From NCBI GenBank assembly GCA_051883655.1, contig JBJEUD010000085.1, forward strand, positions 3,100 to 67,099: a stretch of 64,000 bases of DNA. Direction: 5' to 3'. The stretch is from Candidatus Faecivicinus sp. Lineage in GTDB: Bacteria > Bacillota > Clostridia > Christensenellales > Aristaeellaceae. Shown here in pieces: positions 45,242 to 56,361 of this stretch (position 1 is its first letter; each line of letters opens with the position of its first letter). The notes under the pieces are model-generated. The model saw only the letters and a list, made by a program, of their open reading frames with translations. It ran no database searches and had not been told where the DNA came from. A program made the translations under genes and the position numbers.

Positions 45242-46222
45242 ATGAAGCGCATTTTTGCGATGATTCTGGTTGTCTGCCTGTCGCTGATGGGCGTCTCCTG
45301 TTTCGCCGAGGAAGCGAAGGAGCTGGACGTGGTGCTGGACTGGTATCCCAACGCACTGCACGCATTCATGTACGTGGCCATTGAAAAGGGCTATTACGCC
45401 GAAGAGGGGCTGAAGGTGAACATTCGCTTCCCCTCCAACGCCAACGACGCCATCTCCCTGGTCGCCGCGGGCCGCGCGGACATCGGCCTGTACTATCAGC
45501 AGGACGTCATTCAGGCGCGCGCCAACCAGAGCGTGCCGGTCAAGTCCATCGGCGCCGTGGTTCAGGGCCCGCTGAACATCGTCCTCTTCCTCTCGGAGGA
45601 GAACATCACCGGCCCCGGCGACCTGGTGGGCAAGACCATCGGCTATGCGGGCACCGAGCTCTCCGAGGCCCTGATCCGCAGCATCATGGAAAACGCGGGC
45701 GCGGATTACAGCGACGTCACCATGATCGACGTGGGCTTTGACCTGATGAGCTCCATGACCACCGGCAATGTGGACGCGACCATCGGCTGTCTGGTCAACC
45801 ACGAGGTGCCGCAGATGGAGGAGGAGGGCTTCGAGGTCAACTGGTTTGCCCTGGACGACTACGGCGTGCCGACCTATTACGAGGGCGTCTTCCTGGCCAA
45901 CGACGCGATGATCGACAGCGATTCCGAGACGCTTTCGGCCTTCCTGAGGGCCTCCGCGAAGGGCTTTGCGGACATGCAGGCCGACCCGGAGGAGGCGCTG
46001 CAGATCCTGCTGGCGAATCAGAGCGCGGAGAACTTCCCGCTCAGCGAGACCGTCGAGCGCAAGAGCATGAGCGTCCTGCTTCCGATGATGGAGACGGAGG
46101 TCGCCGCCTTCCTCTCCCAGTCCGACACCTGCTGGCAGGAGAACATCGACTGGATGCGCGCTCAGGGCCTGATCGACGGCGAAGTCGCGTTGGACGACGT
46201 TCGCGTGAATCTGGAATACTGA
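45242..46222 (+). CDS. thiY: NMT1/THI5-like substrate-binding protein (HMP-precursor binding)
   Basis: Signal/lipoprotein-like N-terminus MKRIFAMILVVCLSLMGVSC, then LDVVLDWYPNALHAFMYVAIEKGYY, typical of the NMT1/ThiY family. Confidence 0.8.
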   Translation: MKRIFAMILVVCLSLMGVSCFAEEAKELDVVLDWYPNALHAFMYVAIEKGYYAEEGLKVNIRFPSNANDAISLVAAGRADIGLYYQQDVIQARANQSVPVKSIGAVVQGPLNIVLFLSEENITGPGDLVGKTIGYAGTELSEALIRSIMENAGADYSDVTMIDVGFDLMSSMTTGNVDATIGCLVNHEVPQMEEEGFEVNWFALDDYGVPTYYEGVFLANDAMIDSDSETLSAFLRASAKGFADMQADPEEALQILLANQSAENFPLSETVERKSMSVLLPMMETEVAAFLSQSDTCWQENIDWMRAQGLIDGEVALDDVRVNLEY

Positions 46223-46271: not shown

Positions 46272-46313
46272 ATTGCCCCGAAGCCGTGCATTGCACGGCT
46301 TCGGGGCAATTTC
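46272..46313. terminator. Bidirectional hairpin terminator
   Basis: Near-perfect palindrome attgccccgaagccgtgca / tgcacggcttcggggcaat followed by TTT. Confidence 0.7.
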
Positions 46314-46410: not shown

Positions 46411-47598
46411 TCAGTCCTCAACGCTGATGGTCATGTACATCATGCTCTTGCGGGGAATGCCCTGCTCGTCCTTGACGCGGAAATCGCTGTACACCAGCGC
46501 AGCAGTGCGGTCGTCAAGGGCGACCATGTTGGTGTAGCAGCAACTGGCAGTGTTCAGAGTGTGCCCAGGATAGGGTTCGGGTTCGCGGATGGATTCGAGA
46601 ATTTCGATGGGCTCGTTCCACTTCAGGCATGCGGGATCATCGGTAGCGCGTACGCGGATGCCGGGCCGGCCGTAGGTCGCCAGCGTCACGCCACACTTCA
46701 GCGTCAGCAGGCAGGGCCATACGCCCAGCCAGTCGAACTTCTCGGGATCGGACCATGTATAGCCGCCGTCGGTGGATCGGGTGAAATAGCACGGACCGGG
46801 ATCGATCACGCTGCCATTGGTGCGGATCAGGCGAATCATGGAGCCGTCGGGCGCGAAGGTGATGTCGTTTTCGCCGTAGCCCTCATAATTGAACGCCTGA
46901 GGATCCACGTCGGTGTCCGGCTTGTACAGCAGGCTGCTGGTCATCTCCCAGGTGCGGCCTTCGTCGGTGGACTTGAACAGATAATTGCACAGATAGGGAA
47001 TGTAAGCGCCGTTCTTCGGATCGGTGCCTGCCAGATAGTAGTGGGGCATCCACAGCGCGCCGTCGGGTGCGATGCGCAGGCGGCCGCGGGGGGATGGCGG
47101 CACGAACACGCCCTGACAGCTGCGCATCATGAAGTAAGGCTGGTTGACCTTGGATTCTTCATGGACGCCGGTGGGATGCTCATCGTTGGAGCGGACAAAG
47201 ATCCAGCCATGATTGCAGAAATCAATCTCGTCCGCGGCGTAAATCGTGTGTCCCAGCCAAGTGGTGCGTCCCAAAGGCCTGGGCAGTCTGAGGCCTTCCA
47301 TCGGAATGGAAGGGCCTGTCCATGGGGACAGCACATCGCCGTTCGGCAGCTTTACGCCCAGCTGGCCTTTATAGTGGTCGGGATCGTCCTGCGCCCACGT
47401 CCTGCCGCCGTCGGTACTCACGCAGCAGCCGGGCTTGCTGCCGTAGGCGGTTTCAGAGTCGGCACAGATACTGAAGGTGTACACCAGCTTGCCGTCGTCC
47501 AGCTTGTGGATACTGGGAAATTGATAGCTTCCCCAGCCTGCGAAGCGCGCGTCAGGTCCCTGCGATACGACGACGGGTTTGGAAAAGCGAAGCTTCAT
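46411..47598 (-). CDS. BNR/Asp-box repeat protein, sialidase-like beta-propeller, no signal peptide
   Basis: Asp-boxes STDGGRTW, STDEGRTW and STDGGYTW. The N-terminus MKLRFSKPVVVSQG is not a signal peptide. Confidence 0.75.
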   Translation of the reverse strand: MKLRFSKPVVVSQGPDARFAGWGSYQFPSIHKLDDGKLVYTFSICADSETAYGSKPGCCVSTDGGRTWAQDDPDHYKGQLGVKLPNGDVLSPWTGPSIPMEGLRLPRPLGRTTWLGHTIYAADEIDFCNHGWIFVRSNDEHPTGVHEESKVNQPYFMMRSCQGVFVPPSPRGRLRIAPDGALWMPHYYLAGTDPKNGAYIPYLCNYLFKSTDEGRTWEMTSSLLYKPDTDVDPQAFNYEGYGENDITFAPDGSMIRLIRTNGSVIDPGPCYFTRSTDGGYTWSDPEKFDWLGVWPCLLTLKCGVTLATYGRPGIRVRATDDPACLKWNEPIEILESIREPEPYPGHTLNTASCCYTNMVALDDRTAALVYSDFRVKDEQGIPRKSMMYMTISVED

Positions 47599-47616
47599 AT
47601 CTCGTTTTGCCTCCTG

Positions 47617-48519
47617 TCAGGATTCATACATGAACGGAACGGTCCATGCGCTGCCGCGCTCGCGGGTGCAGATTTCCTGCTCGTTGGCCCATGCGAGATG
47701 GCGGTCGGAGACGGGCAACAGGTCGTACAGATCCGGGGTAGCGGGCACAAAGGCTTCAGCATAGCCGGTGCGGTTGTGGTGGCCGTAGGCACCCTCGTTG
47801 ACCTCGGTGCGGCGCAGAGCGTAGCGTCCGCCGTACTGCTGGCTGACCATGCAGTTCAACGCCTTGACCTTCTTGTCGATCACCTCCGTGATGTCCACAT
47901 AGATCGGAACAAAGGGCATGTGCATCGCGCCCAGGAAGCTGTAGCACTGGGTCATGGGAGAGGCGATCATGTAGAACTGGCGAGCGACGCGCCAGCCAGG
48001 GGTGTTGGTTTCGTAGTCGGTGGTGCCGGCGAGCGCAAGAGCGTGATTGACGATCTTTGCGCTGGTAGCATGCTGGTTGCCGATGCCGCCGCCTTCGAGG
48101 GGATAGTGGTTGATGACGATCTGGGGACGAACCTTGCGGATGGTCTGAGCCACGGCGCGGATCATCTCAGGATCCTCCACGATGATGCTGTCGTCAAAGC
48201 CAAGGAAGATCACGTCTTCCTGCGGAATGCCAAAGCAGGCGCATGCTTCGATGACCTCCTGCTCCTTGTTGCTCTTGCGCGCCGTCTTGATGGAATCGAG
48301 ATTGGCTTGTTCCTCGGCAGTTACCTTGCGCTTTCTGAACTCCTCAGAGAGCACAGTATCGTGGATGCGAAGACCGCCGGTGAGAGAGGCGCAAACCACG
48401 CGATCGCCCGCGGCAACGTGGCAGGCCATCGTACCTCCGCAGTGGTCGAACACATCTGCGGGATGGGCGCCGATGACAAGGATGGTGAGCTTTTGACGGT
48501 TCTGGCCTTGATTTTCCAT
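47617..48519 (-). CDS. PIG-L/LmbE family deacetylase
   Basis: LTILVIGAHPADVFDHCGGT opening, typical of PIG-L N-deacetylases; 300 aa. Confidence 0.75.
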   Translation of the reverse strand: MENQGQNRQKLTILVIGAHPADVFDHCGGTMACHVAAGDRVVCASLTGGLRIHDTVLSEEFRKRKVTAEEQANLDSIKTARKSNKEQEVIEACACFGIPQEDVIFLGFDDSIIVEDPEMIRAVAQTIRKVRPQIVINHYPLEGGGIGNQHATSAKIVNHALALAGTTDYETNTPGWRVARQFYMIASPMTQCYSFLGAMHMPFVPIYVDITEVIDKKVKALNCMVSQQYGGRYALRRTEVNEGAYGHHNRTGYAEAFVPATPDLYDLLPVSDRHLAWANEQEICTRERGSAWTVPFMYES

Positions 48520-48552
48520 GATTGAACTCCTCCAGACCTGTGTTTTGTGCGA

Positions 48553-49359
48553 TTATTTGCCCAGTTCGTCCAGTAGCTCATAGAAGCCTCTGCGCTTTTC
48601 GCGATAGAAGCTGGTCAGGGCGCTTACATCGGAGCCGAGGTTCAGCAGCTGGAAGCCCTCGTCAATGAATATGCGGGGGTCGTCCGTGCAGACGGTGCCC
48701 AGTGCCTTGCCGTATTTGCGGGCGGTCTTTGCGATGCGCTTGCGGGCAGCGATCACGTCTTCGTGGTTGACGTTGTCGCCGTGACCGATGGCGTGAGAGA
48801 AATCGCCGGGGCCGAAGAAGAGGATATCATAGCCCGGCAAATCGCAGATCGCCTCGAGATCCTTTTCCAGGGGCTCGGGATCCTCGATCTGCAGAATGAC
48901 CATTTTGTTTTCGTTGGACTGGCGCAGGTATTCGACGGTGGGCAGCATGCCGTACTGGCCGTCGCCATTGCCGCCGTCGATGGGGCGACGTCCGACAGGA
49001 TAGAAGCGAACCTGATTGATCAGCGCCTTTACATCCTCAAGGGACATGATGTGGGGCACCATGATCCCCGTGGCGTCTGCCTCAAGAGGGCGTATGTAAT
49101 CACTGTAGGAGCCGCGGGGAACGCGCACCAGCAGGTCGGTATCATGTGCCTTGCACACGGCGATCTGGGATTTGATCGTGTCAATGCCCAGCGGACAGTG
49201 CTCCATGCAGGTCCACACGCAGTCAAATCCGCTCATGGCGGCAATCTCGGTGGCCTCCTGACCGGAAACGTTCACTTTGATGGAGCAGGCGATTTTATTG
49301 GCGCGGATCTTGTCCAGCACCTTGCTGCGCCGAATGGAGTAGGTCAATTCCTGGTACAT
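48553..49359 (-). CDS. HpcH/HpaI family (class II, 2-keto-3-deoxy-acid) aldolase
   Basis: DCVWTCMEHCPLGIDT...LLVRVP...GIMVPHI...ILQIEDPE...DILFFGPGDFSHAIG is the HpcH/HpaI pattern. Confidence 0.8.
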   Translation of the reverse strand: MYQELTYSIRRSKVLDKIRANKIACSIKVNVSGQEATEIAAMSGFDCVWTCMEHCPLGIDTIKSQIAVCKAHDTDLLVRVPRGSYSDYIRPLEADATGIMVPHIMSLEDVKALINQVRFYPVGRRPIDGGNGDGQYGMLPTVEYLRQSNENKMVILQIEDPEPLEKDLEAICDLPGYDILFFGPGDFSHAIGHGDNVNHEDVIAARKRIAKTARKYGKALGTVCTDDPRIFIDEGFQLLNLGSDVSALTSFYREKRRGFYELLDELGK

Positions 49360-49368
49360 GCGCTTTTC

Positions 49369-50481
49369 TCATTCCTTTCCCGGGAGCTCCCATCGCGTAT
49401 ACATCAGCGTGCAGGGTTCATTCTCGACGGGTTTCTGATAGTACACTGTCAGGATGCTGTGATCTGCCAGTTCGACCGAGGCGGGATAGCCGAGGTCGCT
49501 GGAGGGTGCATTGGTATCGATGAGGTAGTCCATGTCCCACGACTGGCCGCCGTCGCGGCTGATCATGGCGGACTCGCCGAAGGGTTCTTTGCGACGGCCG
49601 TATACGCACACCAGCGCGCCGGAGGAATGCTGGATCAGATGGGGCGGGGAACCGCAGCAGCCGAGATCCCGTGCCACGGTCCACGTTCTTCCGCCGTCGG
49701 TGGACTCGGTCTGGAAGATGGTGAAGGGCTCGTGGTTGCGATAGCCCTCCGCGTGCTGATAGCGGATGTGGCCGATGAGTTTGCTGTCGGGCAGCTCAAT
49801 CACATGAGGCTCGAAGTAATTGTTGTTGTGAGTGCCTTCCGGCAGTGGGATGGCGGCCAGAGTTTCCCATGTTGCACCCTCGTCAGAGGAAATGCAGGCG
49901 TAGATTGCACCGCCGTCACCGATGGGCTCTTTGTTGATGAAGTCCTTGCCGAGGATCAGCAGTCGTCCGTCGCGCAGCTTTGCCGGGCCGTGGGGCGCGG
50001 TGACAGGGATGCGGTGGGGCTCGCCCCACGTGACGCCGCCGTCTTCGCTCAGTCGGCAGAAGGAACCGGCGTACTTCTCGTTCAGCGCATCGGTGTAGTG
50101 CATGGTCATGGCGTCAAATACCGCCTTCTGCTGATCGCTGAGGCTCTCTCTCGCATGGATATAGCGGGAGAGATACTTGGTTTCGAGGTTGAACCATGTC
50201 AGCAGCAGCTTGCTGCCGCCGAGGTAAAGAATGCCAGCATCGCGATCGTCCAGAGGCGTGTCGTTGACGATAATTGGGCCGAGCCATGTTTTGCCGTCGT
50301 TGCGGCTGATGTACATTGTGGTCTTTCCGCAGAAGCACAGATGGCTCATGCGCATGCCGGAAGCCACGGCGATGAGGGTACCATCCGGGAGCCGCTCGAC
50401 GGAGGGCCATGCAGTGTAACCAAAGATGGACTCCGGATTTCGGCAGATGCAGCCCTTATCGAGGATTTTTACTTTTTTCAT
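49369..50481 (-). CDS. BNR/Asp-box repeat protein, sialidase-like beta-propeller, no signal peptide
   Basis: Five Asp-boxes: SRNDGKTW, SEDGGVTW, SSDEGATW, STDGGRTW, SRDGGQSW. AGGAGA SD lies 9 nt upstream of the ATG at 50481. Confidence 0.75.
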   Translation of the reverse strand: MKKVKILDKGCICRNPESIFGYTAWPSVERLPDGTLIAVASGMRMSHLCFCGKTTMYISRNDGKTWLGPIIVNDTPLDDRDAGILYLGGSKLLLTWFNLETKYLSRYIHARESLSDQQKAVFDAMTMHYTDALNEKYAGSFCRLSEDGGVTWGEPHRIPVTAPHGPAKLRDGRLLILGKDFINKEPIGDGGAIYACISSDEGATWETLAAIPLPEGTHNNNYFEPHVIELPDSKLIGHIRYQHAEGYRNHEPFTIFQTESTDGGRTWTVARDLGCCGSPPHLIQHSSGALVCVYGRRKEPFGESAMISRDGGQSWDMDYLIDTNAPSSDLGYPASVELADHSILTVYYQKPVENEPCTLMYTRWELPGKE

Positions 50482-50550
50482 TACATTCATTCTCCTGGAA
50501 ATTGCGGGAGTATCCAAGGATCTCCCGCAGTATCAGTTGGAATGCAGTTG

Positions 50551-52041
50551 TTATTTGGCGAGCATCTCTTCATATTCGGCAATGATGTCATCCAAACCGG
50601 CAGCGCTCAGGTCGGCGAGGTAGCCATCCCAGGCTTCGTCGATATCGATATTGCCCATCAAGGCGTCGGCGTAGAAGGTGTCGGCGACGGTGGAAACGTC
50701 AGCGCCGTACCAGGTGTTGGCTTCATTCTCGCCGGAAACGTAGAAGTTCTTGCCGTGATAGACGACAGGATTTGCCTGAGCGATGGCGTGCGACTCGACG
50801 TACTCGGTCATGACTTCCTTGTTGTACTCCTCAAAGGACTTGGGCTGCATGCCCCACCAGTAGCCAACGCCTTCTGCCATAAGCGCTGCGTTGTCGGTGA
50901 TGAGCTTCTTGTAGTAGCCGTCAACCTTCTCATAGTGCACGCCTTCGGTGCCGAAGTACATGTAGTCATACAGCTCGGAATCGGATGCCATGGCCTCCTT
51001 GATTTCCATGATCTTGATGCACTCTTCATCGGTGGTGTCGTAGCCGAACATGAAGGCGCCCTGATTGCCGAGGGCAGAGGGGTAGTCAACGTAGGAGCCG
51101 CCTCCCTCGAATGCGGGCATGTAAGAGATCACAGCATCGGGGTTCTGGTCGGTGACCATGTTCTGCAGAATGCCGGAGGAGCACCAGGAGGCGTTGTCAG
51201 GCAGCACGCCGAACAGGCCCTGGCCCCACTTTTCACGCTGCTTGGTGCGGTCGTCCGTGATGGTTTCGGGATCGATGATGCCCTCCTTGTACCAGCTCTG
51301 CAGGAGTTTCATGACTTCCTTGTACGCCTCGGTAGCGCTGGTATAGACCACAGAGCCATCTTCCTGAGCATAGTAGGAATTCTTCATGATGCCATAGGCG
51401 CCGAAGACGTAGTTGAAGTAGTAGCGGCCGTTGCCGTTCATGCCATAGGTGTCGTCCACGCCGTTCCCATCGGGATCGTCATAGGTGAAGGCATACAGCA
51501 TGTCGTGGAACTCTTCTACATTGGTGGGCATGGACAGGCCCAGATTGTCCAGCCAGTCCTGACGAACCAGGAAGATGCCGGGCTCCATGAAGTTGGCCAT
51601 GACCAGCGGAACAGCGTACAGCTCGCCGTCCACGGAGCACTGGTCAATCAGCGTCTGAACGTCGCCGCCAACCAGGGAAGCAGCCTTCTCCATCCAGGTG
51701 GGCATGTACTGTTCGAGCCATTCAACGGGAATGGAACGGGCAAGTCCCTGCTCCACACAGGTGTTGAACTGATCTGCGCCGAGGGTGAGGTTCAGCACGT
51801 CGAACTCGCCGCCGCCGGAGAGCCACAGATTGAACTGTTCCTCATCCATTGCGTCAATGGACGGAAACTCGAGGTTGACGTTGAAGCGCTCCTCCAGATA
51901 GAGCTCACGCTCCTGATCCGGCTGGGGAGACTGGGAATAGCCCACCCAGGTGATCGTCAGGCGCTCTTCTTCCGCAGAGGCGATCGCTGCCATGGAGAGA
52001 ATGAGCATGAGAGCCAGTACGATGGAAAGGAACTTTTTCAT
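50551..52041 (-). CDS. Extracellular solute-binding protein (large LplA-type carbohydrate binding protein)
   Basis: Signal peptide MKKFLSIVLALMLILSMAAIASA; 496 aa. Lies upstream of the enzymes and downstream of the two permeases. Confidence 0.8.
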   Translation of the reverse strand: MKKFLSIVLALMLILSMAAIASAEEERLTITWVGYSQSPQPDQERELYLEERFNVNLEFPSIDAMDEEQFNLWLSGGGEFDVLNLTLGADQFNTCVEQGLARSIPVEWLEQYMPTWMEKAASLVGGDVQTLIDQCSVDGELYAVPLVMANFMEPGIFLVRQDWLDNLGLSMPTNVEEFHDMLYAFTYDDPDGNGVDDTYGMNGNGRYYFNYVFGAYGIMKNSYYAQEDGSVVYTSATEAYKEVMKLLQSWYKEGIIDPETITDDRTKQREKWGQGLFGVLPDNASWCSSGILQNMVTDQNPDAVISYMPAFEGGGSYVDYPSALGNQGAFMFGYDTTDEECIKIMEIKEAMASDSELYDYMYFGTEGVHYEKVDGYYKKLITDNAALMAEGVGYWWGMQPKSFEEYNKEVMTEYVESHAIAQANPVVYHGKNFYVSGENEANTWYGADVSTVADTFYADALMGNIDIDEAWDGYLADLSAAGLDDIIAEYEEMLAK

Positions 52042-52096
52042 GGGGTTACCTCCTTCTTATTGATCCCGCTTGCCTGCGGGATAGCTACATAATGGA

Positions 52097-52978
52097 TTAT
52101 CCCTTCAGCGCGCCGACCATAACGCCTTTGACGAAATATTTCTGCAGGAAGGGATACACCAGCAGAATCGGGCCGAGAGAAATCACAATGGTGGCAGCGC
52201 GAACCGACGAGGACGCTACGTTGGCATCCACCATCAGCGAGTTTTCATTCATGCCCTGTGCTTCGATTACCATCTCGCGCACCAGCAGCGCCAGGGGTTT
52301 CATGTCCGGAGCGTTCGTGTAGAGCATGGCGTCGAAATAGGCATTCCACTGTCCGACCGCGACCCATAGCGCCAGCACTGCGAGGATGGGCTTGGACAGC
52401 GGCAACAGGATCTGGAAGATGATGCGCAGCGGGTGCGCGCCGTCGATGGCGGCGGATTCCTCCAGTTCGTAGGGCAGGCTCTGGACGAAGTTGCGGGCAA
52501 TGACCAGGTTCCATGCAGAGGTCAGTCCGGGCAAAATCAGCGCCCAGCGGGAGCCGATCAGACCGAGATTCTTGATCAGCAGATAACCGGGAATCAATCC
52601 GCCACTGAAGAACATGGTGAATACAATCAGGAAGGTGATGACATTCTTGAACGGCATGCCGCGGCGGCTCAGACCGTATGCGCCGAAGTAGGTGAGCATG
52701 ACGTGCAGGCTGGTGGTGGCGACGGTGCGGATGATGGTGTTCTTATAAGCGGACCAGATCTGGTTCCTGCCGAATACATACCGGTAGGCGGCGAGACTCC
52801 ATTCCTTGGGCCAGAACTTGAAGCCGATGCTGTCGGCAGTTCTGGAAGATGAAAAGGATTGAACCACAGTTGTCCACAGCGGGTACAGGAAGGCAAAACT
52901 GAAAATGACCATGATGACGGAAATCACTGCGATCATGATCTTGTCCGAATTGGTGCGGCGATGCATCATCATTACCAT
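52097..52978 (-). CDS. Carbohydrate ABC transporter permease (LplC-type)
   Basis: 6 TM helices and the EAA-type loop ESAAIDGAHPLRIIFQILLPLSKP. Confidence 0.88.
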   Translation of the reverse strand: MVMMMHRRTNSDKIMIAVISVIMVIFSFAFLYPLWTTVVQSFSSSRTADSIGFKFWPKEWSLAAYRYVFGRNQIWSAYKNTIIRTVATTSLHVMLTYFGAYGLSRRGMPFKNVITFLIVFTMFFSGGLIPGYLLIKNLGLIGSRWALILPGLTSAWNLVIARNFVQSLPYELEESAAIDGAHPLRIIFQILLPLSKPILAVLALWVAVGQWNAYFDAMLYTNAPDMKPLALLVREMVIEAQGMNENSLMVDANVASSSVRAATIVISLGPILLVYPFLQKYFVKGVMVGALKG

Positions 52979-53922
52979 ATGCCCCCTTCCCCGTGGCTAA
53001 GCTTCTTGGCCGCCCAGTTTGTTGCGATGACCAGTACAAAACCAATCCCGTTTTTGAAAAGGCTGATGGCGGTGGACAGACTGTAATCCATCTTGCCCTC
53101 AAGGCCCACGCGGTAGGCGTAGGTATCGATGATGTCGCCGGTCTCGTAAAGCAGTGAGTTGTAGGTGTTGAAAACCTGATCAAAACCGCCGCTGAGGATG
53201 CCGCCGATGGACATGATCAGCTGGATGGAAACAACGCTCATGATGGACGGCAGCGTGATGTACCACATGCACTTCAGGCGGCTCGCGCCGTCGATGGCTG
53301 CAGCCTCATATTGCTCCGTAGGGATGCCGGCGATGGCGGCCAGATAGATGACGGAGCTCCATCCCATCTCCTTCCATATTCCTGAGATGACCAGTATCGA
53401 TCGGTAGTATCTCGAATCCGCCATGAAGTAGACCGGCTCGAAGCCCAGCAGCTGCAGCAGGTAGTTGACTGCGCCGCGGGTAGGGCTGAGCAATTCGGTG
53501 ATGATACCTCCCAGAATGACCCACGAGATAAAGTGGGGCAGATAGGAGATGGTCTGCACTGTCTTTTTGAATTTGCTGCTGGTTATTTCATTCAGCATCA
53601 GCGCAAAGAGAATGGGCATAGGGAATCCGAAGATGATGCGGTAAACGCTGATCAGGAGGGTGTTGCGCACTGTTCGCAGGAACATCGCGCTGCCGAACAG
53701 GCGCTCAAAGTTGGTAAATCCAATCCATGGCGAGCCGAGAATGCCCTTTCGGATGGCGTATTTCTTGAATGCCAGCACAATGCCGTACATCGGCACGTAA
53801 TGAAAGAGGATGAAGAATGCAATGACAGGAATCAGCAGGATGTAAGCCCATCTGTACTTGTACATGGTTCGCAGAAGGCTTGTTTTGTTTCTGAGGGTGG
53901 TTGGCACAGACGGGTTGCTCAT
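52972..53922 (-). CDS. Carbohydrate ABC transporter permease (LplB-type)
   Basis: YRWAYILLIPVIAFFILFHYVPMYGIVLAFK and the EAA loop EAAAIDGASRLKCMWYITLPSI. Confidence 0.88.
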   Translation of the reverse strand: MSNPSVPTTLRNKTSLLRTMYKYRWAYILLIPVIAFFILFHYVPMYGIVLAFKKYAIRKGILGSPWIGFTNFERLFGSAMFLRTVRNTLLISVYRIIFGFPMPILFALMLNEITSSKFKKTVQTISYLPHFISWVILGGIITELLSPTRGAVNYLLQLLGFEPVYFMADSRYYRSILVISGIWKEMGWSSVIYLAAIAGIPTEQYEAAAIDGASRLKCMWYITLPSIMSVVSIQLIMSIGGILSGGFDQVFNTYNSLLYETGDIIDTYAYRVGLEGKMDYSLSTAISLFKNGIGFVLVIATNWAAKKLSHGEGGIW

Positions 53923-53971
53923 TTGCGCTCACAACTCCTTTGCAGTGGATATGAATACGTCTTTGAACCGG

Positions 53972-55024
53972 TCAGGTTTTGCGGATGACGAACTCCGGCA
54001 CAAAGTTGCGCACGGTGATCGGGTGTGCTTCGTCGCCCTCGATGCGGCGAATCAGCTGCTGAATGGCGCTCTTGCCGATGCGCTCCACAGGAAAGGAGAT
54101 GCTGGTCAGCGGTGGATTATGTATTTTGGAAAGCATGGTATCATTGATTCCTACCAGCGAAAGCTCGCCGGGAATGCTCTTGCCGCTCTCGGTGATGACG
54201 TCTCTCAGATGCACCATCACGTTGTCCGGGGCGACGATGCTGTCATATTCGTCGCTGAGCGCCTTCAGCTTCATGCGGATTTCGCGGATGTCGTTGCTCC
54301 ATTCGATCAGATATCGAGGATCCCGCTCCAATTCGTAGCGCTCGGCGAACTCCTCGTAGGCATCCAGTTCCTCCTGGACGAACTTCGCGGAATCGTGCAG
54401 CACGATGACGGTTTTGCGCTTGCCGGTGGTATACAGATAGTCCAGCGCGTTTTCCATGCCCCTCTTCAGGTCCATGGAATAGGTGTCGGTCTCGATGCCG
54501 GGCAAGCTGCGGTTGATGCACACAGTAGGGATCTGATTCAGCAGCGCGTGCACCCGCTGCATGTCGCCAATGAACTTGGGATCGTCCTTCGGCGGAACAA
54601 TGAGAAGCCCGACCGCGCCGGCATCGATCAGATGCTCGAGACTGTCGCAGAATACGTCGTAGCGCTCGGAGTGGTTTACCAGTGAAAGATAGTAATCCAC
54701 CGGAAGATTCTTCTGAATGTGCTCCAGAATCATGTTTTCAACGCGCATACCCACGCAGAAATCAAACATCATTACGCCGATCATGCGGTTTTTGTGGGGC
54801 GTGTGAATCACATAGGTGCCATTGCCCTCGCGCACGGTGGCGAGACCTTCGTTTACCAGCATGGCGATGGCGGTGTTGACGGTGTTCTTGCTCATGCCGT
54901 ATTCATCTGCCAGTGCGCGGATGGAGGGCAGCTTGCTGTCTTCTCCGTACTTGCCTTCAGCAATGTCGTTTTTCAGAATTTCATAAAGCTGGCGGGCTTT
55001 GCCCATAGTGACAATTTGTTTCAT
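53972..55024 (-). CDS. GntR-family HTH regulator fused to a LacI/PBP1-type sugar-binding domain
   Basis: ARQLYEILKNDIAEGKYGEDSKLPSIRALADEYGMSKNTVNTAIAMLVNEGL (GntR HTH), followed by a periplasmic-binding-protein-like domain of about 270 aa. Confidence 0.85.
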   Translation of the reverse strand: MKQIVTMGKARQLYEILKNDIAEGKYGEDSKLPSIRALADEYGMSKNTVNTAIAMLVNEGLATVREGNGTYVIHTPHKNRMIGVMMFDFCVGMRVENMILEHIQKNLPVDYYLSLVNHSERYDVFCDSLEHLIDAGAVGLLIVPPKDDPKFIGDMQRVHALLNQIPTVCINRSLPGIETDTYSMDLKRGMENALDYLYTTGKRKTVIVLHDSAKFVQEELDAYEEFAERYELERDPRYLIEWSNDIREIRMKLKALSDEYDSIVAPDNVMVHLRDVITESGKSIPGELSLVGINDTMLSKIHNPPLTSISFPVERIGKSAIQQLIRRIEGDEAHPITVRNFVPEFVIRKT

Positions 55025-55099
55025 GTAAAGAAGCTCCATTCGATGCGGATTGATGGATAAGGTGGGTGAGTCATGTTCGAGTGTCCCAATTAATAGGCC

Positions 55100-55116
55100 A
55101 AGTGTCTTATACACTT
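55100..55116 (-). promoter_or_regulatory. Palindrome, candidate GntR-type operator
   Basis: AAGTGTcttatACACTT (GT-N-AC type with an AT-rich centre), immediately downstream of the -10 of the GntR promoter. Confidence 0.35.
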
Positions 55117-55144
55117 ATTATAACAGATTCTTCACATCTGTCAA
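55117..55144 (-). promoter_or_regulatory. Sigma-A-like promoter (extended -10) of the GntR/ABC/BNR operon
   Basis: Minus strand: TTGACA (55144-55139), 16 nt ending in TGT, TATAAT (55122-55117). Confidence 0.55.
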
Positions 55145-55217
55145 TAGAGAATTTTGATTGAGACCACAGAAAGATTGCATCTTGCCCCTTTCCCAAAGGA
55201 ATCCTTTCCTTCGGTAC

Positions 55218-55385
55218 TTCGGCGCAAACACGATGTGCGTCGTTGTCCCGGAACCTGCGCCGCCGGTTCTGACCAATCGTCGTCGCGTCCGGCGCCGTCT
55301 CCGTCAAATTCAGCCCGCAAAACCGCTTGTTCGCGCTGTTGTCGTTGATCTCTTCCTCCAACCGCGCTTCAGACTTGACCCCGTT
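55218..55385 (-). mobile_element. Remnant of an IS5/IS1182-type transposase N-terminal (DUF772-like) region
   Basis: The translated segment GVKSEARLEEEINDNSANKRFCGLNLTETAPDATTIGQNRRRRF parallels the conserved GLSD.ELEE.L.D....R.FLGL.L.D.VPDHST..RFR.RL block. No catalytic domain and no inverted repeats were seen. Confidence 0.5.
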
Positions 55386-55446
55386 TTTTCGCATAATGAT
55401 GACCGTTGACTTTGGTTTGTCAACGGTCTGCTGTGATAGGTATTGT

Positions 55447-55475
55447 TTGCATTTTGAAAACAGGCATGCTATAAT
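55447..55475 (+). promoter_or_regulatory. Sigma-A-like promoter for the AraC-family gene
   Basis: TTGCAT (55447-55452), 17 nt, TATAAT (55470-55475). SD AAGGGGGA. Confidence 0.6.
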
Positions 55476-55500
55476 AATAGAAATCAAGGGGGAATCCAGC

Positions 55501-56361
55501 ATGCCCGATCTCATCAATGGTGAAACCGCGATGATCGCCTATCAGACGTTCGAGGGAAAGCCCACATCCTCGTATGTCCCCGAGGTTCATGTCGCGGACC
55601 GTCATCTTCACAAAGAGGTAGAAATGGCTTTCGTGGAAAAGGGCAAACTGACCGTTCGGATCATGGACGAGATCGACGTAGCGGTACATGAAGGCGAAGT
55701 CATCTCCATCAGCGGCAGCACGCTGCACAAGTATACCAACGAGGATCCCGGCACGATCATCATCAAGACCAAATTCATGAAGGACTGGCTGTTTCTGCCC
55801 TTCCTGGACGAGCAGGAGCGCGCAAACTGCCAGCATCTGTACGACGAGGTTTTTGTCGCGCGCGCCGAACAGCCCGTGCGCGAACTCTTTGCCGCGCTGG
55901 TGGCCAGTGAGGATCATCCCTATAACGATCTGTTTGTATTTTCCAAGATTCTCGAGCTGACTGCCTACCTGCTCAAAAACCCCGGCGCCATCCGCCGGGA
56001 GGAGCCGGTCAACATCGAGAGCGCACTGCACATGGACAAGGTGCTGCACTTTCTGCAGACGAACTGCAGCAATCCCAATCTCACACTGCCCATGCTCGCC
56101 CAGCACCTGGGACTTTCGGAGAGCTATTGCTCAAAGTTCTTCAGCAAGAATGTGAAAATGACTTTCGTCGAATACGTCAACGCGCTCCGCGCCAACGCCG
56201 CGCAGTATATGCTGATCAACTCCGACGCCAGCATTACGGAAATTCAGCAGAAGGCCGGTTTTGGCAGCATTCAGACCTTCAACCGCGTATTCAAAAAGCA
56301 AACCAAGATGACCCCCAGCGAATACCGGCAGCGCAAAGGCAAGGGCCGTCAGTGCAAATAG
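55501..56361 (+). CDS. AraC family transcriptional regulator (cupin sensor plus HTH)
   Basis: C-terminal AraC HTH: LAQHLGLSESYCSKFFSKNVKMTFVEYVNALRANAAQYMLINSDASITEIQQKAGFGSIQTFNRVFKKQTKMTPSEYR. Confidence 0.9.
   Translation: MPDLINGETAMIAYQTFEGKPTSSYVPEVHVADRHLHKEVEMAFVEKGKLTVRIMDEIDVAVHEGEVISISGSTLHKYTNEDPGTIIIKTKFMKDWLFLPFLDEQERANCQHLYDEVFVARAEQPVRELFAALVASEDHPYNDLFVFSKILELTAYLLKNPGAIRREEPVNIESALHMDKVLHFLQTNCSNPNLTLPMLAQHLGLSESYCSKFFSKNVKMTFVEYVNALRANAAQYMLINSDASITEIQQKAGFGSIQTFNRVFKKQTKMTPSEYRQRKGKGRQCK

Follow-up and report, generated by a model that had tools for sequence, protein, structure and literature searches.

A sugar-importer operon of an uncultured gut Clostridia bacterium with two sialidase-fold propellers, a class II pyruvate aldolase and an Ala-variant PIG-L protein: a possible route for acidic keto-sugars

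The DNA analysed here, a stretch of 64,000 nt from Candidatus Faecivicinus sp. (GenBank assembly GCA_051883655.1, contig JBJEUD010000085.1, positions 3,100 to 67,099; hereafter the window), carries an operon of eight tightly packed minus-strand genes, in which a regulator and a CUT1-type sugar importer are followed by two sialidase-fold propellers (BNR1 and BNR2), an aldolase of the HpcH/HpaI family and a PIG-L-fold protein. We tentatively propose that the operon serves the import of an acidic glycoside, from which the propellers would release a 2-keto-3-deoxy acid in the cytoplasm, and that this acid, optionally converted by the PIG-L-fold protein, would be split by the aldolase to give pyruvate. 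Directly observed are the genes, their folds, the residues kept in the families and the linkages that recur, and from these we infer all catalytic steps and the identity of the sugar. Newly shown are an Asp-to-Ala change in the PIG-L-fold protein (motif HPAD), the linkage of this HPAD subfamily to the aldolase, and the finding that BNR genes are no fixed partners of the aldolase. An earlier interpretation made from the DNA letters (the sequence-only reading) had described an operon for an oligosaccharide capped with an N-acylated 2-keto-3-deoxy sugar acid of the sialic, Kdn, Kdo, legionaminic or pseudaminic type. Its gene order and domain content were reproduced, all eight genes being matched by Pfam, and its importer, its cytoplasmic sialidase-fold pair and its aldolase stand, while a canonical sialidase function, the deacetylase and the choice of sugar were weakened or gained no support. 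The genes for the propellers, the aldolase and the PIG-L-fold protein are:

49369..50517, minus strand: BNR1, cytoplasmic six-bladed sialidase-fold propeller, BNR_2, with five Asp-boxes (PF13088, 2.7e-15)
48553..49359, minus strand: pyruvate aldolase of class II (metal-dependent), HpcH/HpaI family, matched over its full length (PF03328, 1.1e-24; 87 bits against a cut-off of 25)
47617..48519, minus strand: PIG-L/LmbE-fold metalloenzyme of the HPAD subfamily (PF02585, 1.9e-16)
46411..47598, minus strand: BNR2, six-bladed propeller with the sialidase fold, cytoplasmic, three Asp-boxes (PF13088, 3.6e-7, just under the cut-off)

In their AlphaFold2 (AF2) models, with predicted local distance difference test (pLDDT) values of 92.5 for BNR1 and 96.6 for BNR2, both propellers fold like sialidases of glycoside hydrolase (GH) family 33, yet they fall in two uncharacterised families. 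The best structural match for both was 5HX0 (VIA Z 40.2 for BNR1 and 28.2 for BNR2). GH33 sialidases reached Z 31-34 for BNR1 and 22-25 for BNR2, matching over more than 300 residues and above all other fold classes, and the GH93 arabinanase ranked below them in both cases (28.3 and 21.4). BT1020 (5MQS) from Bacteroides thetaiotaomicron, which removes side chain D of rhamnogalacturonan-II, consisting of arabinofuranose and 3-deoxy-D-lyxo-heptulosaric acid (Araf-Dha; bioRxiv 10.64898/2026.03.13.711244), reached Z 23.1 for BNR1 and was not among the 50 matches listed for BNR2. A recount of the Asp-boxes gave the same numbers as before, five and three. No hydrophobic N-terminal segment was found in BNR1, the aldolase, the PIG-L-fold protein or BNR2, in contrast to the binding protein of the importer, which has one; the claim that both propellers lack signal peptides and are cytoplasmic therefore holds. 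The start codon of BNR1 is probably ATG 50490 or 50481.

The BNR1 family is very large, with more than 6000 cluster representatives (~50% identity) from Bacillota, Planctomycetota, Chloroflexota and Armatimonadota, and the BNR2 family is smaller, with ~200 homologues. By hhalign, the two families are homologues (probability 99.4%), and their members are annotated in the source databases as 'exo-alpha-sialidase' or not at all. At one locus, three BNR1-like paralogues of ~430 aa stand in a head-to-tail tandem (L034:4309-8136; G147:C78). A third BNR_2 family holds the best Pfam BNR_2 matches in Clostridia (~260 bits; L195-L201, e.g. L195:1396-2394); its proteins are leaderless, ~335 aa long and without RIP, and share a conserved C-H-A-S-T motif. 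The Clostridia class sample, tried as a source of canonical GH33 sequences, yielded this non-canonical 'CHAST' family instead. The comparison of blade 1 was made by aligning BNR1 and BNR2 with sialidases from the PDB.

At the site of the RIP arginine, BNR1 reads G-Y-T-A-W-P opposite S-Y-R-I-P of the sialidase NanA, and BNR2 reads S-Y-Q-F-P opposite N-Y-R-I-P of the M. viridifaciens sialidase. The hhalign comparison pairs A36 of BNR1 with Q26 of BNR2, and W37 and Q26 are invariant within their respective families. With Ala/Trp in BNR1 and Gln in BNR2 in place of this arginine, neither propeller is a canonical GH33 sialidase. Other residues of the putative active site appear to be kept. Invariant in the BNR1 family are R56, H59, D90-D93, E236, R252, R309 and Y344; in the BNR2 family they are Q26, D47, E243, R259 and R311, with Y355 nearly invariant. 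Aligned in both families are a Glu (E236/E243), two Arg (R252/R259 and R309/R311) and a Tyr (Y344/Y355), spaced as the sialidase Glu, Arg2, Arg3 and Tyr. Furthermore, E243 and R259 of BNR2 lie in register with a Glu and an Arg in the sialidase of P. gingivalis, flanked by Asp-boxes that match, and the invariant D47 is found three residues ahead of the position aligned with Asp92 of M. viridifaciens (weak alignment, E 0.1). By alignment, the RIP arginine of the sialidase Arg triad is missing, two further Arg are conserved, and the conserved Glu and Tyr are candidates for the Tyr/Glu pair. We read BNR1 and BNR2 as active enzymes with a modified carboxylate-binding site.

The aldolase retains the catalytic motifs EH-P, RVP, QIE and GPxD in alignment with GarL (1DXE); like GarL and HpaI, it has the His and the Arg as well as Glu and Asp for metal binding. 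Scores against the NCBIfam equivalogs for GarL, HpaI and RhmA (YfaU) were 69-108 bits (cut-offs 369-441), identity to solved members is at most ~30%, and the subfamily is small, with 59 cluster representatives at E<=1e-30 among 1.8 billion proteins. In the Clostridia sample, each of the 27 subfamily genes has an open frame 256-298 aa in length; where longer proteins occur among the best 150 representatives, they consist of aldolase repeats in tandem or, in one case, of an apparent chimera of aldolase and binding protein. The substrate should be a 4-hydroxy-2-oxo (2-keto-3-deoxy) acid, cleaved into pyruvate and an aldehyde. A profile search of the unit genes found no lyase of the dihydrodipicolinate synthase (DHDPS) type, no NanK, no NanE and no ABC ATPase. 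Both the reported absence of NanA, NanK and NanE from the unit and the view that a class II pyruvate aldolase takes the place of a NanA-type lyase are in agreement with these results. The source genome is a metagenome-assembled genome (MAG) of 2.94 Mb with the operon on contig C85; NanE (PF04131) was not found in this 84% complete genome, and three DHDPS-family genes lie elsewhere in it, one of which could be NanA.

Characterised LmbE/PIG-L deacetylases carry the motif H-x-D1-D2 and a further His, with the two His and D2 binding the metal and D1 acting as general base (PMC4101496). The protein in the window reads H19-P20-A21-D22, in which the general-base Asp is replaced by Ala. All 40 aligned PIG-L sequences have H19, P20 and D22, the metal ligand H150 is likewise invariant, and A21 is kept in 35 of 35 close relatives, the five distant PIG-L proteins of the alignment having HPDD. 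The same Ala occupies the general-base site of the GalB hydratase (AHSAD versus AHPAD), whose structure 5CGZ was the second-best solved match (residues 13-243, E 1.7e-6, ~20% identity), and some HPAD members are auto-annotated as 4-oxalomesaconate hydratase by the Joint Genome Institute (JGI). In the GalB paper of Mazurkewich et al. from 2016, this Ala is said to be the distinctive feature by which the fold becomes that of a hydratase instead of a hydrolase. At most, the HPAD protein would be GalB-like in its working; it forms a separate subfamily and is not an orthologue. The catalytic residues of GalB, which we take to be Glu48 and His164, fall on H53, a nearly invariant His, and on a non-conserved Leu, and are thus not matched.

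Because the HPAD subfamily travels with the aldolase in other genomes, a hydratase-aldolase pair appears at least as likely as de-N-acetylation. The name PIG-L N-deacetylase was right as a Pfam family, but the protein is of the HPAD and not of the HxDD type and is without the general base of the deacetylases. The postulated de-N-acetylation, together with the N-acylated sugar, gained no positive support: HPAD is invariant in the subfamily, its Ala is shared with GalB, and no PIG-L gene is present in the nearest orthologous operon (L035). A signal-like N-terminal extension occurs on some HPAD members (L115:9845-10885; P0286, P0294), and in some non-Clostridia lineages the enzyme may act outside the cytoplasm.

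The genomic surroundings of the HPAD subfamily are telling. Among 398 other Clostridia genomes, five carry the HPAD subfamily, all five also carry the aldolase subfamily, and in three of them both genes lie within 4 kb. One of these genomes (G091) has the order giant BNR_2 protein, HPAD protein, aldolase, with a gap of 16 bp between the latter two and a BNR1-like gene ~10 kb upstream on the same contig. At the metagenome locus L115, the HPAD gene adjoins a BNR2-family gene among genes for amino sugars, which encode a NagB-like protein, a kinase of the APH type and a PIG-L protein with the canonical HQDD. For the propellers, a BNR2-family gene was found within 10 kb of the aldolase subfamily in 5 of 80 loci, which come from Oscillospiraceae, Christensenellaceae, Faecousia and Planctomycetia. 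This linkage is far above chance because the aldolase subfamily is rare, being carried by only ~6% of Clostridia genomes, with the restriction that the relatives are not independent.

As a whole, the operon recurs only in the close relative L035 and in part in L064. L035 comprises the regulator, both permeases, the binding protein, BNR1 (77% identity), the aldolase (83%) and BNR2 (69%), without PIG-L. Neighbourhood conservation is therefore twofold: the whole operon is confined to close relatives, whereas its modules recur across phyla. The richer loci L064 and L087 carry additional BNR_2 genes and another aldolase, together with aldo-keto reductases (AKR), dehydrogenases, amidohydrolases, an aminotransferase and an FGGY kinase, of which the reductases, the dehydrogenases and the kinase fit the handling of an aldehyde product. 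For the BNR1 family, no conserved neighbourhood emerged over 13 Clostridia loci, the weak counts being 4 for AP_endonuc_2 and 3 for DHDPS.

Several further arrangements were seen in these loci. In two Clostridia genera, a GH127 glycosidase (beta-L-arabinofuranosidase family) adjoins the aldolase subfamily (L232:7662-9587, L234:7693-9609, L235:3363-5288), and one Clostridia family has a recurring cassette of, in this order, HPAD protein, GHL10-like hydrolase, a 604-aa protein without Pfam match and HpcH aldolase (L236:5335-10429; L259; L261). Proteins resembling uroporphyrinogen decarboxylase (URO-D; PF01208) stand beside BNR2-family or HPAD genes (L064:7544-8653, L115:8502-9668), and two more lie near BNR1 homologues. 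A 684-aa open frame at L064:1667-3721 combines similarity to binding proteins with a BNR_2 domain and is either a fusion or an artefact of calling open reading frames (ORFs). In Paenibacillus sp. HJGM_3 (L109, 4917-20487), three BNR_2 proteins, one with an F5/8 type C domain, are grouped with a CUT1 importer, a glycosidase of GH4 and two genes resembling acid-sugar dehydratases of the MR/MLE type; the isolate is in culture and may be a tractable organism for the propeller families.

The upstream half of the operon encodes the regulator and the importer:

53972..55039, minus strand: regulator composed of a winged-helix domain of the GntR family (PF00392, 1.1e-18) and a sugar-binding domain of LacI type (Peripla_BP_3, PF13377, 3.4e-19)
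52972..53922, minus strand: ABC permease 1, CUT1 type, BPD_transp_1 (PF00528, 1.1e-13)
52097..52978, minus strand: ABC permease 2, CUT1 type, BPD_transp_1 (PF00528, 5.5e-11), with a 7-nt overlap with permease 1
50551..52041, minus strand: binding protein of 496 aa with a DUF3502 C-terminus (PF12010) and a hydrophobic N-terminal signal

The nearest solved relatives of the binding protein, matching over nearly its full length at E ~1e-22, are Smon0123 and AlgQ1/AlgQ2, all binders of acidic, uronate-containing oligosaccharides; Smon0123 binds unsaturated glycosaminoglycan (chondroitin) disaccharides (PDB 5GUB, 5GX6 to 5GX8; PMC5430744). In NCBIfam, the matches of permease 1 were only distant ones of the UgpA/MalF kind. 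With two permeases and an extracellular binding protein, the set is of the CUT1 type, and its ATPase gene lies outside the unit, which confirms the earlier view of an importer without an ATPase of its own. In the rest of the genome, the sole ATPase candidate seen was a weak MalK-type OB-domain match on contig C61, below the cut-off.

Based on these findings, the following course of events appears conceivable. The GntR/sugar-binding regulator would control the single promoter of a substrate-inducible locus, and the importer would take up an acidic oligosaccharide with the help of an ATPase borrowed from elsewhere in the genome. BNR1 and BNR2 would act as cytoplasmic glycosidases, as suggested by a Glu/Tyr pair like that of sialidases and by two carboxylate-binding arginines out of three, and would most likely release an ulosonic-type 2-keto-3-deoxy acid from two different linkages. 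Just ahead of the aldolase, the PIG-L-fold protein could serve as an accessory zinc enzyme, either hydrating an unsaturated or dehydrated acid, as GalB does, or removing an acyl group in a non-canonical way. From the released 4-hydroxy-2-oxo acid, the HpcH-type aldolase would then form pyruvate and a second product, an aldehyde or aldose, to be handled by genes elsewhere in the genome.

As to the sugar, the candidates are acids of the Dha type and of the related 3-deoxy-D-manno-octulosonic acid (Kdo) type, of the sialic type and of the uronate type, with Kdo/Dha leading as a guess. Kdo and Dha are attractive because both acids are widespread in gut and environmental habitats, as are the two propeller families. 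Spelled out in full, and in this form rather unlikely, gut Clostridia would use glycosides of non-sialic ulosonic acids by means of two new ketosidase families, a PIG-L-fold hydratase and a Kdo/Dha aldolase. The ketosidases would then work with two carboxylate-binding arginines and the hydratase would rehydrate a dehydrated (2-ene) product, details to which we give the same low credence, as we do to bacterial lipopolysaccharide (LPS), capsules and plant rhamnogalacturonan-II as sources of the sugar. Kdo aldolase is an activity known since 1966, for which the literature searched gave no gene assignment. D-Kdo is secreted by B. thetaiotaomicron, with pathways in other gut microbes unconfirmed (2026 preprint).

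A number of observations weigh against the release and cleavage of an ulosonic-type acid as proposed. The GH33 arginine triad is incomplete in both propellers, and at the acid/base site F62 of BNR1 lies opposite Asp372 of the sialidase NanA (weak alignment, E 0.002). With no RIP arginine in either protein and a Phe at this site of BNR1, the active site would be unlike that of every known ulosonic-acid hydrolase; moreover, the placement of the conserved propeller residues in the pocket is taken from alignment. Recurrence of the whole operon is limited to the two loci mentioned above, and BNR1 homologues of 35-47% identity stand in unrelated contexts. Among the best 150 aldolase representatives there was no aldolase-propeller fusion, and a BNR gene stands beside the aldolase in only 1 of 27 Clostridia loci, other partners being GH127, GHL10, FGGY and AKR genes. 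Finally, no characterised members were found in either propeller family, in the aldolase subfamily or in the HPAD subfamily.

This choice of partners makes the aldolase look like a shared end-step taken up by several cytoplasmic glycosidase types. In the most probable of the alternatives, the propellers would cut another bond, that of a neutral or 6-deoxy sugar or of a uronate-containing or unsaturated oligosaccharide, and the HPAD-aldolase pair would handle an unsaturated or oxidised acid further downstream. We consider this possible though doubtful, and are just as reserved about its corollary that the propeller product itself is no aldolase substrate. In its favour, the aldolase subfamily is found with such unrelated glycosidases as GH127, GHL10 and BNR_2 proteins, and the HPAD-aldolase pairing recurs without BNR genes; the Asp-to-Ala change in common with the GalB hydratase and the resemblance of the binding protein to binders of unsaturated uronate oligosaccharides also agree with it. 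In addition, related BNR loci contain enzymes suited to non-phosphorylative sugar oxidation, namely AKR, GFO/IDH/MocA and short-chain dehydrogenase/reductase (SDR) proteins, lactonase candidates of the amidohydrolase type and MR/MLE dehydratases. However, the operon and its closest orthologue have no dehydrogenase, lactonase or dehydratase that could turn a neutral sugar into a 2-keto-3-deoxy acid, the two retained arginines and the Glu/Tyr pair point to a carboxylate-bearing ketoside, and the GalB positions named above, Glu48 and His164, are unmatched in the alignment.

Improbable, in our view, is the original proposal of an N-acylated nonulosonic substrate that is released by intracellular sialidases, de-N-acetylated by the PIG-L protein and cleaved by the HpcH aldolase in place of NanA. 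The sialidase fold is indeed the best functional match of the propellers, the unit lacks a NanA-type lyase and the genome, as far as it is complete, lacks NanE. The pairing of an HPAD and a BNR2-like gene beside amino-sugar genes at L115 speaks for it as well, as does the nearest solved binding protein, which recognises a disaccharide of uronate and amino sugar. In contrast, the RIP arginine missing in both propellers is kept in GH33 enzymes, including KDNases and the pseudaminidase, the PIG-L protein is without the general-base Asp of all characterised LmbE-type deacetylases, and the closest orthologous operon does without the PIG-L gene altogether. Both propeller families are also abundant in the soil and lake phyla Planctomycetota, Chloroflexota and Armatimonadota, and host sialoglycans are scarce in such settings. 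A non-carbohydrate role in the breakdown of a plant aromatic or other non-sugar acid is very improbable: the closest characterised relatives do include HpaI for the aldolase and GalB for the HPAD protein, both from aromatic ring-cleavage pathways, but the importer is of the CUT1 oligosaccharide type, the regulator has a LacI-type sugar-binding domain, neither the operon nor the related loci contain a ring-cleavage dioxygenase or other aromatic-pathway genes, and the organism belongs to an anaerobic gut lineage of Clostridia with a chicken-gut MAG as nearest relative.

The earlier description of a single minus-strand transcription unit was confirmed by its promoter and its small intergenic gaps, which range from a 7-nt overlap to 55 nt. 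The flanking signals are:

55117..55144, minus strand: sigma-70-type promoter, TTGACA-16-TATAAT with an extended TG, matching 12 of 12 consensus positions
46272..46310, no strand assigned: perfect palindrome with 19-nt arms, between converging operons

The longest ORF of the regulator (53972-55114) opens with a GTG that would lie ahead of the predicted transcription start; given the end of the -10 box at 55117, the true start is probably ATG 55039 or 55024. At the other end, the palindrome is probably a bidirectional terminator, shared with a converging thiamine-salvage operon that ends at 46222; a diverging AraC gene begins at 55327. We considered the adjacent DUF1537/BKACE operon as a sink for the four-carbon product of Dha cleavage and rejected it, its genes being linked to no related locus. 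The G+C content of the importer/regulator part (50001-56000) is 0.53-0.57, compared with 0.60-0.67 in the surrounding genome, which suggests acquisition by transfer. Among the loci retrieved, Candidatus Faecivicinus avistercoris, a chicken-gut MAG of the class Clostridia, is the closest relative with a name.

With both propellers, the aldolase and the HPAD protein, four of the eight operon genes belong to uncharacterised families or subfamilies, and the automatic names 'exo-alpha-sialidase' and 'PIG-L deacetylase' are probably wrong in detail. Identification of the substrate would correct the annotation of thousands of genes, could show how acidic keto-sugars to which no catabolic genes are assigned, for example Kdo or Dha, are recycled by bacteria of the gut and the environment, and would probe whether sugar metabolism has recruited the PIG-L fold for a hydratase. 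If the Kdo/Dha route were true, the operon would be the first gene-level example of such a route in gut Clostridia and its class II enzyme the long-sought Kdo/Dha aldolase.

Among known systems, the nan clusters, for example of Bifidobacterium longum subsp. infantis, combine intracellular GH33 sialidases with a NanA lyase. The proposed logic is alike: a capped oligosaccharide is imported, a cytoplasmic six-bladed propeller removes the acidic keto-sugar, and this is split into pyruvate and an aldose; the fold match to GH33 is strong (Z 22-34). The operon differs in that the propellers lack the RIP arginine and BNR1 the aligned acid/base Asp, in that the lyase is a class II HpcH enzyme and not a class I DHDPS-type one, and in that NanK and NanE are missing from the unit. 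In both structure and sequence, the top match of the propellers is 5HX0 (Dfer_1899 of Dyadobacter fermentans), a structural-genomics entry whose function is not known. It superimposes on BNR1 over 323 residues with a root-mean-square deviation (rmsd) of 2.5 and a profile E-value of 7e-25, likewise lacks the RIP arginine (AFPSV), and has DLGYP and R-containing motifs in common with the propellers; at only ~20-23% identity, no function can be transferred from it. Our literature search found nothing on 5HX0 or on a system of sialidase-like protein and HpcH aldolase.

BT1020, whose family we take to be GH143, offers a precedent for what is proposed for BNR1 and BNR2, a gut-bacterial propeller glycosidase for a non-sialic 2-keto-3-deoxy sugar acid, although it is far less similar to them in structure than the GH33 enzymes. 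It is reportedly a periplasmic multidomain enzyme of a Bacteroidota polysaccharide utilization locus (PUL), and we know of no description of an aldolase partner. As in the pairs of GalB with the aldolase for CHA (4-carboxy-4-hydroxy-2-oxoadipate) and of HpaH with HpaI, a class II pyruvate aldolase stands here beside a hydratase candidate, a PIG-L-fold metal enzyme that bears the Ala of GalB. Unlike in the GalB system, the context is a sugar importer and not an aromatic pathway, at ~20% identity, and the partner aldolase of GalB is, according to the work of Mazurkewich et al. from 2016, said to be of a different fold family. With Smon0121-0123 of Streptobacillus, the operon would share the cleavage of a glycoside in the cytoplasm after import (PMC5430744). 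Where that system and the Sphingomonas AlgQ1/Q2 system rely on a hydrolase of family GH88 or on alginate lyases, with KdgK and KdgA as the next enzymes, the locus in the window uses sialidase-fold proteins and an HpcH aldolase.

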